Notes under the pieces: generated by a model
The model's database searches: none
What the model was told of the DNA's origin: nothing
The model's input: the letters and a program-made list of their open reading frames with translations, nothing else
Program-made: the position numbers and the translations under genes
Shown: positions 12,011 to 16,434 of the stretch, piece by piece
Position numbering within the stretch: the first letter of the stretch is position 1
How the letters are laid out: every line of letters begins with the position of its first letter
NCBI GenBank assembly: GCA_965219455.1
Contig: OZ244744.1
Location: 3,616,001-3,680,000, forward strand
Direction: 5' to 3'
Length of the DNA: 64,000 nt
Source: Candidatus Latescibacterota bacterium
GTDB lineage: Bacteria > Latescibacterota > UBA2968 > GCA-2709665

Positions 12011-12268
12011 AAAAAGCAAAAGGAAAAAGGAGGAAGGCAGAAGGAAGAAATATAAGCAGGATAAACACGTGGTCTGCCGGCGGTCAAGCTGTTTGCGAAT
12101 GCCTGCCTATTACTTGAGCCTCGGTCCGCCTGGGAGGACCTGAATAGAGGCGAATGATCCGCAGTGCAAACTCCTTCGTCCGCGTCCGAAGATCCGCCAC
12201 TTTTTCCTTCTTCCTTCTTCGTTTTTCCTTCCTCCTTCCTCCTTCCTCCTTCTTCCTTTCTCCTTCTA
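12011..12268 (-). pseudogene. Decayed four-helix-bundle (23S-IVP-like) mini-gene flanked by purine-rich heptamer repeats
   Basis: Minus frame gives VADLRTRTKEFALRIIRLYS before frameshifting; flanked by AGGAAGG/CCTTCCT heptamer arrays in inverted orientation. Confidence 0.6.
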
Positions 12269-12667
12269 CGGCTCCGCGGTGTCAGGCAACTGCAAGGCGG
12301 CGTCATCGAAGGTGTAAAAAGCGCTCAACTCGTCTCCGTCGGCTGCCGTCTTTCTGGCCTTGCATACGATCAGGGCGTCGGCGAAGTCCGCCTCCGTCCT
12401 GCGAAATGCCTGCAAGGCGCTCCAGACCACCTCATCGTCCTCGAAGCGCACGTTGGAATCTTGCAGCAGGTTATTGACCAAGTCGATCAGGTCGGCCCGG
12501 GTCGCGCGATACCGGCGGCCAGCTAACGTCCACGTCGTTTCCGCCAGTACCACATCCGTAATGAGAACGCGCTCACCGCATTCAATTATGCGCCGCGCCC
12601 GTTCAGCCTGCGCTTCGTCGTCTCTCAAGAGATAGCGCAGCAGGACATTGGCGTCGATTGCGATCAA
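12266..12667 (-). CDS. vapC: VapC-family PIN-domain toxin
   Basis: IAIDANVLLRYL, VLAE, ADFADALI, FYTFD acidic PIN motifs. Confidence 0.9.
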   Translation of the reverse strand: MIAIDANVLLRYLLRDDEAQAERARRIIECGERVLITDVVLAETTWTLAGRRYRATRADLIDLVNNLLQDSNVRFEDDEVVWSALQAFRRTEADFADALIVCKARKTAADGDELSAFYTFDDAALQLPDTAEP

Positions 12668-12900
12668 GGCGTTTGGTCCCGCTTTCTTTCCATGGCGTCC
12701 TGGCGCGACTCCTCGTCCGAAACCGTCGGATCTCCTTCAAGATACGCCAGGCATCCCCAGGCGCTGCCGGGCTTCTGGCGGACGATGGTAATGCGGCCAT
12801 CGGCCACGAAACTCCGGCACTCGTCGCCTGGCTCGATGCCGGCTAAACGGCACTGATCAGCCGGAAGCGTTATCTGTCGCTTGGCGCTGACTTTGGGCAC
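12664..12900 (-). CDS. AbrB/MazE/SpoVT-family antitoxin
   Basis: MPKVSAKRQITLP...GIEPGD; 4-bp overlap with the toxin gene. Confidence 0.9.
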   Translation of the reverse strand: MPKVSAKRQITLPADQCRLAGIEPGDECRSFVADGRITIVRQKPGSAWGCLAYLEGDPTVSDEESRQDAMERKRDQTP

Positions 12901-13090
12901 GATCTTCTCCCATGATGGTGATCACGTCAGAATTTCATACGAATTACTTTACTTACTGAAAAATACAAAGAAAATTATCAGAATGTAAAAAACCTGAGCA
13001 GAGAGGCAGACTTACGCCGCCAACGCCTCATTCAATTCGTCAAGGGAACAACGCGTTCTTGGCCAACGCAAATGACGTGTCAGATGAGAC

Positions 13091-13495
13091 CTAAAATCCG
13101 ACACGCTTCTCATTGTGATCTTGAAGGGTTCCTTCGAAAATGCTTCGAAGATATTCGGCTATCAGACGATTGCGAGCAATTAAGTCTTGATCTTCTTGAT
13201 TGGATTCGGAAGCTTCGAAAGAAGCGATTAGATTCTGAACCTTTTCCTTCAATCCCTGTTCATCTTTTATATCCATGTGTTGGAAGAATAGATTTAACAC
13301 CAGCTGATTCGCAAGAACGTGAGCAGAGATTTCTTGACTTATAGAGTCTTCTGTGTCTGCGGGCTTAAAGTGCAATTCATATAACAACAAAGCAGCTTTG
13401 AAACGTATCTCGCGATCTTTCATATCTTGCCGATTTATTATTCTCCATAGAGAATTGTTTAATTCATCCCATGCAAGTTGCTTATTTATGTCCAT
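13091..13495 (-). CDS. Hypothetical 134-aa passenger protein (AT-rich)
   Basis: ORF with RBS GGGAGA inside the IS1595-derived cassette; no recognisable motif. Confidence 0.6.
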   Translation of the reverse strand: MDINKQLAWDELNNSLWRIINRQDMKDREIRFKAALLLYELHFKPADTEDSISQEISAHVLANQLVLNLFFQHMDIKDEQGLKEKVQNLIASFEASESNQEDQDLIARNRLIAEYLRSIFEGTLQDHNEKRVGF

Positions 13496-13568
13496 TCTCT
13501 TTCTCCCGATATAAAGTTACTTTCGTAGAAGTGCATCGGTTGATCTGCTCTCAACGAAATTTATTAGA

Positions 13569-15272
13569 GTCTTACAGTGTGACTTCTACGCAAAATGCGT
13601 AGATAATTATTCATGCTGCTTGTTTAGTGGTAGGGTGTTGATGGTAAAGGGTCAAAGACAAGGCGAGTGTTTTGTGCCCCGCGGGTGTGACGCGCCATCG
13701 TCTGGACCGTGGGATTTTTGCAATCAGGCCGCGGACGTGTAGACGTTTGAGGAGGCGGCTGGTGGCATTGGCGTGCCGAGTGCGTTGCAGAAGGGATGCG
13801 GGTTGTTGGAAGAGGTGTGTTCGGATGTCCTGGTTGCGGAAGCCCATAAGGGCGTGTTCGCCTTTCAACACAGCGGTAAACAGGTCGAGGTCGTAAAGGT
13901 CGGCGGGGTTAAAGCCCCGATAGGTACGTCCCTTGTGCCTGCGTGGCCGCGCCAGTGTGGTGAGGCTTTGATGTCCGGTAGCGGCGTCAGGGGCTGCGGA
14001 CAGCGCCTGAAAGTAGCGTTGGTTGGCCGTCAACGAGATTTCCCGATAGCGGTAGAGGTTGGCCACGCCTTTGGCCATGGGATACCAGCCCATCACGCGT
14101 TGTCCTCGCCGTATGCCCCAGCGGCGAACCTTGAACTGCCTTGGATGGTTGATCACTGTTTCGACGCGTAGTACGCACCCGTGTTTGTCGTACATTTTAA
14201 TCCAGTTCTCACACATCCGGTGTTTGACTCTTGCGCCTTTGTGGCGTTTGTTTTTGAAGTCCGTGAGGACTTCACCCTGAAAGTTGCCGTGGAGTTTGCG
14301 GCCCAGGAAGGTCAAGATGTCCTGGGGAGAGAAGCACAGCACCGTGTGTCTGAGCAGGTTTTCATACAGCGCCTTCAGGGCGTGGGGGTTTTGGAACATC
14401 ACGTCGGTGGCGAACTCGGCCTGGTCAACGACCCAGTAGTAGTCCATGCCCAAAAGCAGGTCGTTGAGCAGGGGGTTGACCTTGCGGGCGAACGCAGAGA
14501 GAATGCGCGGCCAATTCTTGCCCACAAAACGATCGGCAAAGCGTTGCGCCCGGTCCACATCGGCAATCCAGACAAACGCGTTGTCCAATTTTTCATAGGC
14601 GATGCCGTGTTTGTCGAGCTTGCGCGCCAAGAACTCGTGGCCATTGAGACAGATCTGTACCACCAGCGGGAACCAGGACTGGATGCGGATATGCATCAGT
14701 CCAAACTCCCGGTCAATCCAGTAGAAGTAGTAGCACAGGCATTTCCGTTGTGCGTTGATCAGGCGAGGCCTTCCTTCCCCTGGCACCAGCTTGAAACTCT
14801 GGCAGCCTTCCAGGGCCCGAAACACACAGACCAGGCCTTGCGTGATCCCATCGCGTTTTGCCAACCGTCGCGCTTCGTCCTCTTTCCTGATGGTGTTGCG
14901 TTGCAGATAGATGAACGGGCGCTCGTGCTTGTTTGCCATCGCCTCCGCGTGGGCTTTGATCGTATCGGAATGCGTCATCACAAAACGCTTGAAGTCCTTC
15001 AACAACAAACCCTGATTGCTGATGAACCGCTCCATCGCAGTTCCAAATCCCAGCGGCAGGTACCCTTTGAACAGAACCCGATCAAAACAGGATACCACTC
15101 CGGTGATTTTTTCACTACATTGGTCCACGAAGTCTTTCACGGCGTTCCTCCTTCCATTGATGGCGGTGGGTACCACCATCATAGGGGATGAACGCCGTTT
15201 TGCATACCCAAAAACAATCTGCTCTTGACTACCACCTATTTGGTTGCGGCTGAGCAAAGCGAAGCCGCGCTA
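13569..15272 (-). mobile_element. 1.7-kb TIR-less element with terminal hairpins and a single large ORF
   Basis: Hairpins TCTACGCA-AAA-TGCGTAGA (13585-13603) and GCGGCT-n11-AGCCGC (15246-15268); GC shift relative to the flanks; removal rejoins a 42-codon ORF in frame. Confidence 0.7.
13611..15140 (-). CDS. Putative transposase/relaxase with Rep_trans-like motifs and C-terminal winged helix
   Basis: Likely GTG start at 15140 after RBS GGAAGGAGG (509 aa); motifs QAEFATD and WIKMYDKHGCVLRVETVIN; C-terminal LLKRLHVRGLIAKIPRSRRWRVT. Confidence 0.7.
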   Translation of the reverse strand: MKDFVDQCSEKITGVVSCFDRVLFKGYLPLGFGTAMERFISNQGLLLKDFKRFVMTHSDTIKAHAEAMANKHERPFIYLQRNTIRKEDEARRLAKRDGITQGLVCVFRALEGCQSFKLVPGEGRPRLINAQRKCLCYYFYWIDREFGLMHIRIQSWFPLVVQICLNGHEFLARKLDKHGIAYEKLDNAFVWIADVDRAQRFADRFVGKNWPRILSAFARKVNPLLNDLLLGMDYYWVVDQAEFATDVMFQNPHALKALYENLLRHTVLCFSPQDILTFLGRKLHGNFQGEVLTDFKNKRHKGARVKHRMCENWIKMYDKHGCVLRVETVINHPRQFKVRRWGIRRGQRVMGWYPMAKGVANLYRYREISLTANQRYFQALSAAPDAATGHQSLTTLARPRRHKGRTYRGFNPADLYDLDLFTAVLKGEHALMGFRNQDIRTHLFQQPASLLQRTRHANATSRLLKRLHVRGLIAKIPRSRRWRVTPAGHKTLALSLTLYHQHPTTKQAA

Positions 15273-15348
15273 GGGAGTAGGTAAATGATCAAGAAGAAAG
15301 TTGCAAATTCCGGCAGAAAAACGGCTAAAAAGGTCGTTAACAACCTCA

Positions 15349-15494
15349 TTAATAGACCCTCTTGCGTCCAACGTCGTTGCAACCACAGAGAGGGCAGAAC
15401 GGTCCTCCGCCGAAGCGGAGTTCTTCCAAATATTCAAGACACGACTTTTGATCCGGAAAACGTTCGAAAATCTGATACTCTGATACAAAGACAT
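15349..15494 (-). pseudogene. IS1595-family transposase N-terminal zinc-ribbon remnant
   Basis: Removing the 8-bp tandem duplication TCTGATAC x2 (15471-15486) gives MSLYQIFERFPDQKSCLEYLEELRFGGGPFCPLCGCNDVGRK, then truncation. Confidence 0.8.
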
Positions 15495-15694
15495 GGCAGA
15501 TTTCGGGCTTTCTGGAAGTGATTCCTGGCAGAATCCTTTGTGGTTTGTGCCTGGCAGGGCACGTGTGGGATTGCGGGTTTGACTGTTGTTATCCCCTTAA
15601 AGCCCGATCTCTGCCAAACTTCCGGGAACTTTTTTCGAAAATTTCCCCTTTTTAGCCAAATTTCCTGCCGATTTAACGCAATTGAAACAAAATA

Positions 15695-15722
15695 AAGCCC
15701 TGGTATCCGAACCCAGGGCTTT
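15695..15722. terminator. Rho-independent terminator-like hairpin
   Basis: AAAGCCCTGG-TATCCGAAC-CCAGGGCTTT with an A/T-rich tail, downstream of the small ORF. Confidence 0.55.
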
Positions 15723-15731
15723 GAATCTTGT

Positions 15732-15848
15732 CTATCTAACGAATGCGTCCAAGATAGATTCCACTATCTTTTCGCACTCGCGACTTGCCACAAGGATGAT
15801 GATCACGAGTCTGTCGCGATCCCATCCCTTGGATTTTCGCCTTTCCAT
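15732..15848 (-). CDS. 38-aa small peptide (below the ORF-track cutoff)
   Basis: Strong RBS AGGAGG, MERRKSKGWDRDRLVIIILVASRECEKIVESILDAFVR*, followed by a terminator-like hairpin. Confidence 0.5.
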   Translation of the reverse strand: MERRKSKGWDRDRLVIIILVASRECEKIVESILDAFVR

Positions 15849-16011
15849 GGCGATCCTCCTTGTCAAACTGGGTTCGGTGCCAGGGTGGCACCCAGGACTC
15901 GATCGACAGACTCAGATCATCAACATCATCTGCTTTAACTATATATCAAAATGATTGAAAGTCAAGTATGGGTGGCATACTTTTCGCGTTGGCCAAGAAC
16001 AGGTTGTTCCC

Positions 16012-16140
16012 TTCGTCAATTACGTCTTCCATCCGGTCGCCGAATAACTTGTACATCTGCCCCATTCCGCCCCTGCTATCGAACGGTGCTATGTCCAGAT
16101 CCTCGCAATCCAGATCGAACGAGGTGATGGTGCGGCACTG
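16012..16140 (-). pseudogene. hsdR: Type I restriction subunit (HsdR, EcoEI-like) C-terminal remnant; last codons displaced to 13012-13043
   Basis: EDLDIAPFDSRGGMGQMYKLFGDRMEDVIDE resumes as LNEALAA* on the far side of the IS1595 cassette. Confidence 0.75.
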
Positions 16141-16147
16141 TCGCGAC

Positions 16148-16256
16148 AAGGAAAAAGGAGGAAGGTAGAAGGCAAAAGGCAGAAGGAGGAAATTTGAAAA
16201 AAATCAACGCGTGGTCAGTCGCCGGCATTATCCTTTTTCTTTCTACCTTCTGCCTT
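16148..16256. repeat. Heptamer-repeat MITE-like unit related to 12011-12268
   Basis: AAGGAAAAAGGAGGAAGGTAGAAGGCAAAAGGCAGAAGG ... TTCTACCTTCTGCCTTC. Confidence 0.55.
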
Positions 16257-16434
16257 CACGCGGCCAAAGCCTCATTCAACTCATCGATAACATCTTCCAT
16301 CCGGTCACCAAATAGCTTGTACATCTGCCCCAACCCGCCCGTGCTATCGACGAGCTTGTTTCTTGACTGTACCTTCCAGCCGCGTTGATTTTGTCGCGCG
16401 CCTTTTGTTCCGGAGTGCGGTAAATGTCAGTCAC
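16256..16434 (-). pseudogene. hsdR: hsdR with almost the entire body deleted (N- and C-termini joined)
   Basis: TPEQKARDKI and, after a frameshift, GWKVQSRNKL fused to DSTGGLGQMYKLFGDRMEDVIDELNEALAA*. Confidence 0.75.

Follow-up and report, generated by a model that had tools for sequence, protein, structure and literature searches.

The window analysed here is a stretch of 64,000 nucleotides from a Candidatus Latescibacterota bacterium (GenBank assembly GCA_965219455.1, contig OZ244744.1, positions 3,616,001 to 3,680,000), the genome of which is represented by one contig of 5.84 Mb. On its minus strand lies a repeat unit of about 1.7 kb, whose single open reading frame (ORF) encodes a protein of 509 amino acids and whose left end (LE) and right end (RE), named in gene orientation, each carry a subterminal hairpin. 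Feature coordinates are collected in Table 1, and window positions are used for this copy throughout. A sequence-only reading of the window had described the locus as a candidate mobile element of rolling-circle type, with one gene for a Rep_trans-like protein. We interpret it as an autonomous one-gene insertion sequence (IS) of a large unclassified family, whose transposase joins a nuclease with the TATA-binding protein (TBP) fold to a MarR-like winged helix and resembles the Rep_trans replication initiators; we place the probability of this interpretation at about 0.6.

Table 1 Features of the insertion sequence in the window (window positions).
Feature	Positions	Strand	Basis
Whole repeat unit, 1711 bp	13564..15274	-	11 copies align over exactly this span; metagenome contigs diverge at both positions
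Element proper, 1703 bp, between the two CTA triplets	13568..15270	-	Empty versus filled site comparison
CTA at LE junction (TAG on + strand), preceded by target C (15274)	15271..15273	-	Copy alignments and empty site
LE subterminal GC-rich hairpin (GCGGCT...AGCCGC), 6-bp stem, 2 nt inside CTA	15246..15268	-	Fold and family covariation
AACCAAA box directly 3' of LE hairpin	15239..15245	-	Family alignment
Putative transposase gene, 509 aa, GTG start, TGA stop	13611..15140	-	ORF, homologue starts, tblastn
Residues 1-384, TBP-like double-repeat saddle, putative nuclease domain (D20, E242, Y317, R325, E327)	13989..15140	-	Model, fold searches, conservation
Tyr317 codon (K-M-Y-D-K), proposed nucleophile	14190..14192	-	Invariant in 87 sequences; predicted strand 312-319; spacing as in R189-x-Y191-x-K193
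Residues 385-509, MarR/HxlR-like winged-helix DNA-binding domain (predicted)	13614..13988	-	
RE hairpin 1 (TCTACGCA-TTT-TGCGTAGA), 8-bp stem, 18 nt inside RE CTA	13585..13603	-	z -2.9 versus shuffles
RE terminal box ...AAGACT, with CTA (13565-13567) = AAGACTCTA	13568..13584	-	Copy and family alignments
CTA at RE junction, then target A (13564)	13565..13567	-	Copy alignments and empty site

A search of the whole host genome returns 11 near-full copies of the unit (four at 100% identity, six at 97% and one at 95%), and the six copies at 97% are mutually about 100% identical. The outermost bases of the unit derive from the target, the A at 13564 and the C at 15274 both belonging to a CCTAA pentamer. 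GC content is 55–61% within the element and 39–44% in the flanks. Contigs from three metagenome runs enter the element and diverge exactly at 13564 and 15274, with 10, 10 and 5 different continuations at 15274 in runs X1, X6 and X2, respectively. Full-length copies occur in three of 15 congeneric genomes, namely the host (11), G001 (about nine, plus three partial) and G009 (one), while G008 holds a single 0.68-kb fragment; the named congeners are Candidatus Latescibacterota metagenome-assembled genomes. The host genome also contains eight units of 140–312 bp in which diverged LE and RE sequences face each other without a gene, resembling miniature inverted-repeat transposable elements (MITE-like), in addition to solo ends, and such gene-less LE and RE pairs are common in the 14 congeneric genomes. 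The recurrence of the unit is far above what chance would give. Identical copies in the host, uninterrupted sites in related genomes, gene-less MITE-like units and patchy occurrence among the congeners lead us to conclude that the element is a mobile, multi-copy and active insertion sequence. The discrete mobile segment with one gene is thereby confirmed.

The exact ends and the target were determined from the copy at 1.57 Mb in the host genome. At this position the congeners G011 and G013 are uninterrupted and read ...GATCC CCTAA AAGAAC..., whereas the filled site in the host reads ...GGTCC C-CTA-[element]-CTA-A AAGAAC.... From this comparison it follows that the target is CCTAA, that a CTA stands on both sides of the insertion, and that the inserted DNA measures 1706 bp, being the element plus one CTA (13568–15273 or, equally, 13565–15270 in the window copy). 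Agreement is less clean at three other copies: for L004 (1.84 Mb), G013 has CCTAC at the collinear position; L006 (4.40 Mb) sits in a repeated gene array, where the length of a paralogous unit equals that expected of the empty site; and at 4.11 Mb the orthologous intergenic stretch has diverged and has room for only about one pentamer. The pattern CCTA...CTAA borders nine of the nine host copies displayed and 10 of the 11 usable copies from relatives, where the exception, L023, starts with TCTA; a truncated copy (L029) and a copy whose LE was not located (L031) were left out of the latter count. The CTA at the LE junction is a putative cleavage or strand-exchange triplet. No empty site was found for the window copy itself, the flanks of which (approximately 13044–16257) are absent as a block from the nearest relative.

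These junctions correct the boundaries given by the sequence-only reading, which had set the segment at 13569–15272 (1704 bp) and so fell 2 bp short; the 3-bp CTA duplication that it mentioned as an alternative was right, as the empty CCTAA in two congeners shows. It had also argued that cutting out the segment rejoins the flanks into one reading frame. When the cut is made at the right positions, the flanking ORF runs on for four codons beyond the junction (...IIYLLPNKFR, then a stop), and the continuation proposed earlier (LINFVESRSTDALLRK, then a stop) lies in another frame. The rejoined frame was therefore an artefact of the 2-bp boundary error.

In the host copies, LE reads C-CTA-(G/A)(C/G)-GCGGCT...AGCCGC-AACCAAA and RE reads ...TCTACGCA-TTT-TGCGTAGA-AGTC..ACTGTAAGACT-CTA-A, both in gene orientation. 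LE and RE bear no sequence relation to each other; the element accordingly lacks terminal inverted repeats (TIRs), as previously claimed and as seen in end alignments of copies from the host and its relatives. The non-coding ends measure 134 and 43 nt. Both stem-loops that had been pointed out at the ends are present. The folding energy of the RE hairpin stands apart from that of shuffled sequences; the energy of the LE hairpin is not outstanding by itself (z -0.1 to -0.5), and that hairpin is recognised instead by its conservation with compensatory changes. In close relatives the RE terminal box forms a second, 7-bp hairpin (AGTCTTA-CTG-TAAGACT), which is imperfect in the window copy. This second hairpin, seen in the lineage of the window copy, was rejected as a feature of the family, as only 49.6% of its cells are paired. 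As a separate observation, a 12-nt string in the origin region of pT181 (L058, 4363–4374) includes the heptamer ACTCTAA, which is also present at the conserved right terminus of the element (13564–13570); the RepC nick may lie inside this string.

The ends were then compared across the family. A metagenome scan confirmed 447 relatives, and the set used comprises 80 loci at 52–64% protein identity and three genome loci, 83 in all. Of the 83 loci, 58 show the LE motif, 67 show that of RE and 46 show the two together, with element lengths of 1673–1895 bp. Upstream of the LE triplet the base is C in 54 of 58 loci, and the triplet itself is CTA in 38, CCA in 11, TTA in four, ATA in three and something else in two. 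Directly 3' of the RE CTA, 50 of 67 loci have A, 10 have T, six have C and one has G, counts that, like the RE CTA itself, are partly fixed by the search pattern used to locate RE. For the LE hairpin, 94.4% of cells are paired across 39 members, compared to 85.8±0.9% in shuffles (0 of 500 reach the observed value), with compensatory double changes in four of the six pairs; slid registers are 21–63% paired. In the adjacent box AACC is invariant and AAA nearly so. The RE hairpin is only 65.8% paired at a fixed register (50.8% at a slide of -2) because loop lengths differ; when the region is folded for each sequence separately, 46 of 55 members surpass their shuffles (mean z -2.1, 28 members below -2). 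The RE terminal AAGACTCTA is conserved as sequence and sits about 15 nt past the hairpin. We see the same architecture on plasmid pOLGA1 of Paraburkholderia phytofirmans, where a 34%-identical homologue annotated 'ArsR family transcriptional regulator' is bordered by C-CTA-AG-hairpin-AACCAAA at one end and hairpin-...GACTA-A at the other. The ends are thus conserved across phyla. The comparison of homologous loci that had been suggested as a check on the earlier interpretation gave hairpin ends conserved family-wide without TIRs, and empty sites.

The start of the gene was set at a GTG (15140–15138), with AGGAGG about 7 nt upstream, because in two large protein searches the homologues begin at residue 40–42 of a longer frame that opens with TTG; the stop is at 13611–13613. 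By tblastn, 10 of the 11 host copies give one uninterrupted match over the whole frame, and the eleventh lacks the last five codons because another IS landed there. Apart from a sub-threshold winged helix-turn-helix (wHTH), the protein has no match in Pfam, NCBIfam or PHROGs, in line with the earlier reading, which saw no DDE, HUH, serine- or tyrosine-recombinase or reverse transcriptase motif, and PDB sequence searches with the single sequence and with a profile return only the winged helix (E 0.03–0.06). Relatives are nevertheless numerous: an exhaustive search gives at least 7140 clusters at 50% identity at E<=1e-3, 754 of them at E<=1e-30, and of 8000 candidates that were scored, more than 4125 proteins reach E<=1e-3; these are without exception nameless or labelled 'hypothetical', and most lie on contigs of 1.7–2.9 kb. 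In a language-model atlas, the neighbours are unnamed clusters of Planctomycetota, Acidobacteriota and Pseudomonadota. The family as a whole is found in Latescibacterota, Planctomycetota, Acidobacteriota, Desulfobacterota, Bacteroidota, Pseudomonadota and Actinomycetota, with members on plasmids of Paraburkholderia, Burkholderia, Rhodococcus and Mycobacterium that are annotated as ArsR regulators or hypothetical proteins.

AlphaFold models the protein with a predicted local distance difference test score (pLDDT) of 93.9 over its whole length, and residues 1–385 with a pLDDT of 95.7 and a predicted template modelling score (pTM) of 0.93. As a fold search with the whole model was dominated by winged-helix matches, the catalytic domain was modelled alone. 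Searched against the PDB with Foldseek, the domain model has as its top four matches the chains A–D of RepSTK1, a Rep_trans initiator (4cij; E 1.8e-3 to 2.9e-3, probability 0.91–0.95), and next come 4cwe and 4cwc (RepDN and RepDE). In BFVD there are 10 matches at E<=1e-3, among them giant-virus TBPs and A0A345MNV4 (E 1.7e-4), an inovirus Rep_trans initiator according to the available part of PMC13107129. A structure search against Rep_trans had been proposed along with the earlier interpretation, and its outcome, with RepSTK1 chains leading in the PDB and inovirus initiators among the top BFVD matches, speaks for it. In the model, the catalytic part of the protein adopts the TBP-like β-sheet fold that characterises Rep_trans initiators. 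No RNase H-like, RuvC-like or other transposase fold is present among the fold matches listed. No DDE family is matched in Pfam or NCBIfam, and both domains of the model are covered by TBP-like and winged-helix folds, a coverage that cannot by itself exclude a fold. The best explanation of these results is that the transposase is not a DDE, DEDD, HUH, serine or tyrosine recombinase enzyme. A homodimer prediction for the catalytic domain scored 0.00, which is uninformative either way.

The active-site residues of Rep_trans provide a second line of comparison. According to PMC4797284, R189 and K193 lie on either side of Y191 in RepD/RepDE, the metal of RepDE is bound by D46, D142 and E214, each on a separate strand, and the conserved residues of RepD include R140xD142xA144xD146 and R212xE214. 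The available part of PMC5714925 gives the Rep_trans motifs as N' (D), I (RxD), II (T/SxY/ExG), III (YxKxxE) and IV (W/LxRxE). On its predicted strands the IS protein carries F-D20-R...G26, Q240xE242xA244xD246, K315xY317xK319 and R325xE327, with the order and internal spacing seen in Rep_trans. An alignment of 87 family sequences has 16 invariant columns (D20, R21, G26, G102, E111, Y138, Y140, G147, P158, N166, N187, W236, E242, Y317, R325 and E327), and D246, K315 and K319 are conserved in at least 90%. A tyrosine on a β-strand in an R/K-x-Y-x-K context is found in K315-M-Y317-D-K319, its proposed equivalence to Y191 resting on motif order. Candidate metal ligands are D20 (strand 12–27), E242 (235–249) and E327 (323–330), which follow RepDE in order and motif context. 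The best hhalign alignment pairs FDR...G of the IS protein (D20, G26) with FDA...G of RepC (D46, G52), which is suggestive and non-significant.

The similarity of QAEFATD, IKMYDK and LRVE to RxDxAxD, RxYxK and RxE of RepD, first noticed in the sequence-only reading, falls on invariant columns and predicted β-strands, in the RepD order and with its internal spacing. Taken together, the model and the motifs suggest with some confidence that the N-terminal nuclease is distantly related to the Rep_trans initiators (RepC/RepD, RepSTK1 and the inovirus gpII-like proteins), or is at least their equivalent in structure and motifs. With the exception of the reading-frame argument, the earlier interpretation is supported computationally in every part that could be tested, although sequence profiles do not detect the likeness and single-strand nicking is inferred. 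The first TBP-like repeat (residues 102–166) carries a conserved set of its own on strands, consisting of E111, Y138, Y140, R152 and N166; this set might form another tyrosine site or a surface for DNA binding. One hhalign run placed the RepC Tyr region, non-significantly, on this first repeat.

The same data bear on the idea that the protein is merely a DNA-binding regulator, and that mobilisation of the element depends on an enzyme acting in trans from another locus. The winged-helix C-terminus and the annotation of plasmid homologues as ArsR regulators or hypothetical proteins would fit such a role. However, the gene is the sole ORF of the element, is intact in 10 of the 11 copies and travels with the conserved ends across phyla, whereas the gene-less derivatives are short and decayed. 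Furthermore, the 16 invariant columns are mostly charged or aromatic residues on β-strands outside the wHTH. We regard a purely regulatory protein as very improbable.

Several observations weigh against a Rep_trans-like transposase. Motif I differs, with Q in place of R and E in place of D, and motif II (T/SxY/ExG) is not recognised in the 87-sequence alignment, where G302-x-R-x-K-H occupies the strand that precedes the one with the Tyr. The distance from the Tyr to RxE is 10 residues, compared to 23 in RepD and 17 in RepSTK1, and the two are joined by a tight hairpin with no intervening helix. The invariant E111, Y138 and Y140, as well as R152, are not accounted for by the Rep_trans pattern. 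The Rep_trans profile PF02486 is not found in the host genome at E<=10 (the control does give a match in B. subtilis) and matches none of the 87 family members. An hhalign comparison with a 10-sequence Rep_trans alignment gives a probability of 0.4% (E 0.14), and comparison with RepC alone is alike, at 0.3–0.4% over the two runs; the Rep_trans alignment drew on six plasmid Rep genes at 31–76% identity, the RepC-seeded search having listed only sequences at 86% identity or above. The fold scores are modest. There is no bias in the orientation of the 11 copies relative to GC skew (one arm: +,-,+,-,-; other arm: -,-,+,+,-,-), a weak point given n=11 and an odd skew curve. Finally, a CTA on both sides is also the formal product of a 3-bp staggered double-strand cut at a target containing CTA.

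This last point corresponds to a transposon that moves by double-strand cut-and-paste or copy-paste through an unknown chemistry, with a preference for CCTAA, a true 3-bp CTA target site duplication (TSD) made by staggered cuts, and a saddle that serves mainly to bind or bend DNA. We consider such a transposon unlikely. A staggered-cut duplication is argued against because the triplet is constant and the ends are asymmetric: there are no TIRs, the ends are entirely different, and the supposed TSD is nearly constant, with CTA at LE in 38 of 58 loci, which fits a sequence-specific nick better (the constancy at RE comes in part from the RE search pattern). In addition, the invariant D/E/E/Y/K/R set on β-strands mirrors Rep_trans, and the fold matches listed include no RNase H-like or other transposase fold.

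A single-strand, Rep-type mode of transposition predicts differing hairpin ends without TIRs, a shared triplet, an active-site layout suited to nicking and joining, and derivatives that consist of ends only, which is the anatomy seen here. Under such a mechanism, the winged helix and the saddle would bind the subterminal hairpins of LE and RE. Tyr317 would nick one strand beside the CTA at the element–flank junctions and form a 5'-phosphotyrosyl link, assisted by a divalent metal held by D20, E242 and E327, with K315, K319 and R325 alongside. Strand transfers would reseal the donor as CCTAA and free one strand as a copy, probably in the form of a circle. The alternative is that rolling-circle synthesis spins off a copy from LE to RE, which would leave the same footprint. 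Joining of the copy into a new CCTAA site would then place CTA on both sides. The data establish that the element is mobile, where it ends, its CCTAA target with a CTA at either junction, the lack of TIRs, the conservation of hairpins and boxes at the ends, the gene-less derivatives, the fold and the pattern of conserved motifs. Catalysis by Y317, the metal ligands, the single-strand chemistry, the strand that is cut and excision as opposed to copy-out are what we infer in this scheme.

A protein of the initiator type could instead replicate its own DNA. In that case the element would primarily be a minimal rolling-circle replicon that integrates, such as a mini-plasmid or satellite, whose initiator works as in pT181 or inoviruses and whose chromosomal copies are integrants able to re-excise. 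The combination of a TBP-fold nuclease with a MarR-like wHTH matches the Rep-Arvir initiators described in the available part of PMC13107129. In three metagenome runs, depth is 145–290 on the element and 2.7–16 on its flanks; the ratio, about 16- to 50-fold in X1, X2 and X6 (window 12900–15900), is above what 11 genomic copies would lead one to expect, and many contigs consist of the element alone. Against this, those contigs end exactly at LE and RE like collapsed repeats, and none is seen joined from RE to LE; the excess depth may come from related genomes in the same samples, extrachromosomal copies being another possible source. The 11 dispersed chromosomal copies and the MITE-like derivatives are the behaviour of an IS, and a second function would not fit into the element. 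A replicon of this kind seems to us unlikely.

Among assembled metagenome contigs, no circle junction, RE-to-LE joint or excision joint was seen. One listed joint, from 14254 to 14342 (depth 6.55, one run), was rejected as an excision joint, as it represents a stretch that is replaced in a divergent relative. At L029 (G001:C15:527097-530191), a copy that ends at element position 1402 abuts another that begins at position 40; the arrangement, which is not a head-to-tail junction, may have arisen by nested insertion or by recombination.

In its enzyme, the element resembles the Rep_trans and Rep-Arvir initiators. The Rep_trans group is the closer one in the PDB fold search (pT181 RepC, pC221 RepD, RepSTK1 of 4CIJ, RepDE of 4CWC, inovirus initiators and the MOBT relaxases of integrative and conjugative elements). 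Shared with these are the TBP-like catalytic domain with active residues on β-strands, the order and internal spacing of the motifs FD..G, xxD/ExAxD, K/RxYxK and RxE, a separate DNA-binding domain, and substrate sites that adjoin hairpins. The IS protein differs in being about 200 residues longer, with large helical insertions and a MarR-like wHTH as its DNA-binding domain, and in having no detectable sequence homology, no recognised motif II and a shorter distance from Tyr to RxE. The chief difference is that it belongs to a dispersed, multi-copy chromosomal IS with a 5-bp target and not to a plasmid, phage or conjugative element. In the available parts of PMC5714925, PMC13107129 and PMC13595969, Rep_trans/TBP-fold nucleases are confined to plasmids, filamentous phages, conjugative elements and archaeal viruses, and rolling-circle transposition is confined to HUH enzymes.

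The Rep-Arvir proteins (DUF7845) of archaeal viruses and plasmids likewise have a TBP-fold nuclease followed by a MarR-like winged helix and show the same Foldseek pattern of viral TBPs and A0A345MNV4; as far as the accessible text of PMC13107129 (2026) goes, they are related to Rep_trans only structurally. The DUF7845 profile (PF25227) has no match in the IS protein or the family sequences. In contrast to what that text gives for Rep-Arvir, the IS family has bacterial hosts, carries KxYxK and not KHYYM, and forms an IS and not a viral or plasmid replicon.

In function, the element is nearer to IS200/IS605 and IS91. Elements of the IS200/IS605 group (IS608, ISDra2) are similar in lacking TIRs, in having differing subterminal hairpins, in inserting beside a short fixed sequence, in possibly resealing the donor precisely and in giving rise to MITE-like derivatives. 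Unlike them, the present element encodes no HUH Y1 enzyme (there is no Pfam or NCBIfam match, and the fold is TBP-like and not RRM-like), its protein has 509 residues compared to about 150, and the same CTA triplet marks both of its junctions. IS200/IS605 elements show an orientation bias with replication; the 11 copies here, a small sample, are mixed on both skew arms. The cumulative skew of the host genome has its minimum at about 3.52 Mb, approximately 100 kb before the window, and its maximum at about 5.45 Mb, so that the arms measure about 1.9 and 3.9 Mb; this inequality could stem from large-scale rearrangement, from misassembly or from a skew that is weak in this phylum.

IS91, ISCR and Helitron elements also lack TIRs and have functionally distinct ends, a short fixed target and a transposase related to rolling-circle replication (RCR) initiators. 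Those enzymes are HUH Y2 nucleases with an RRM-like fold, whereas the present protein has another, non-homologous RCR nuclease fold and no helicase domain; no HUH Y2 transposase is matched in it by Pfam or NCBIfam. With IS110/IS1111 the element shares the absence of TIRs (or, there, only subterminal ones), a short core common to the junctions and the target, and sequence-specific insertion. It differs from them in having no DEDD/RuvC-like or Transposase_20 domain in Pfam or NCBIfam, in short ends that match no Rfam family, and in using the same pentamer target across very diverged members, a target that is not reprogrammed for each element.

The recognised chemical classes of transposase are DDE, DEDD, HUH-Y1/Y2, serine recombinase, tyrosine recombinase and casposase. 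A full-text literature search found no transposase of the present kind reported, ISfinder and paper supplements being outside its scope. We think it slightly better than an even bet that the family represents a new catalytic class of prokaryotic transposase, a Rep_trans-related TBP-fold tyrosine nuclease, hidden under the labels 'hypothetical protein' and 'ArsR regulator', that makes sequence-specific single-strand nicks at CTA beside hairpins and inserts into CCTAA. It would be an IS driven by an RCR nuclease and built on another nuclease superfamily than HUH, and a new transposase class if the biochemistry holds. The family probably constitutes a widespread and unrecognised way for bacterial DNA to jump. 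If this is true, a Rep_trans-like TBP-fold enzyme is added to the list of transposases, and machinery has passed between rolling-circle replicons and transposons on two occasions, the HUH and Rep_trans nucleases, which are unrelated, having been recruited independently by insertion sequences.

There are practical consequences as well. The family breaks metagenome assemblies, as seen in the short contigs of 1.7–2.9 kb on which most homologues lie, and it is unannotated or misannotated, so its recognition would improve IS annotation. The hypothesis can be tested directly because members occur on plasmids of cultivable Paraburkholderia, Burkholderia, Rhodococcus and Mycobacterium. A compact, single-protein, sequence-directed integrase of single-stranded DNA could also be of interest to tool builders.

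Further observations concern the element's surroundings and expression. A scan for promoters and terminators gave nothing above shuffles, and an Rfam scan gave only a sub-threshold miRNA match. In four RNA runs from a sponge metatranscriptome (X13–X15 and X18), contigs cover parts of the element at 90–99% likeness and a depth of 2–5, and one of them starts exactly at 13564. These contigs are a hint of the habitat and perhaps of expression; DNA carry-over is possible, so transcription is not demonstrated. Other insertion sequences (G000:C1:2449997-2451592 and G000:C1:4795363-4796915) have landed within two copies of the element. One of the inserts is single-copy, with 1596 bp and a 3-bp overlap of the flanks. 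The other has 1553 bp, terminal inverted repeats, a 4-bp overlap and nine match rows in the genome, the six rows listed being full-length and 100% identical, although two may be one copy, as their coordinates are 1 bp apart. The copy at 4402914–4404624 lies inside a long array of diverged repeated coding units (72–88%) at G000:C1:4.389-4.416 Mb, which is also expanded in several congeners, with dozens of matches. Around the window copy, the AT-rich stretch of approximately 13044–16257 (GC 39–50%) is absent whole from G011, where the bordering sequences are adjacent; it is a strain-specific islet and may be foreign DNA itself. Upstream of the element, at 12266–12900 on the minus strand, two overlapping ORFs encode a PIN/VapC-like protein of 133 amino acids (12266–12667) and an AbrB/MazE-like protein of 78 amino acids (12664–12900), which, judged from their translations and motifs, resemble a toxin–antitoxin pair.

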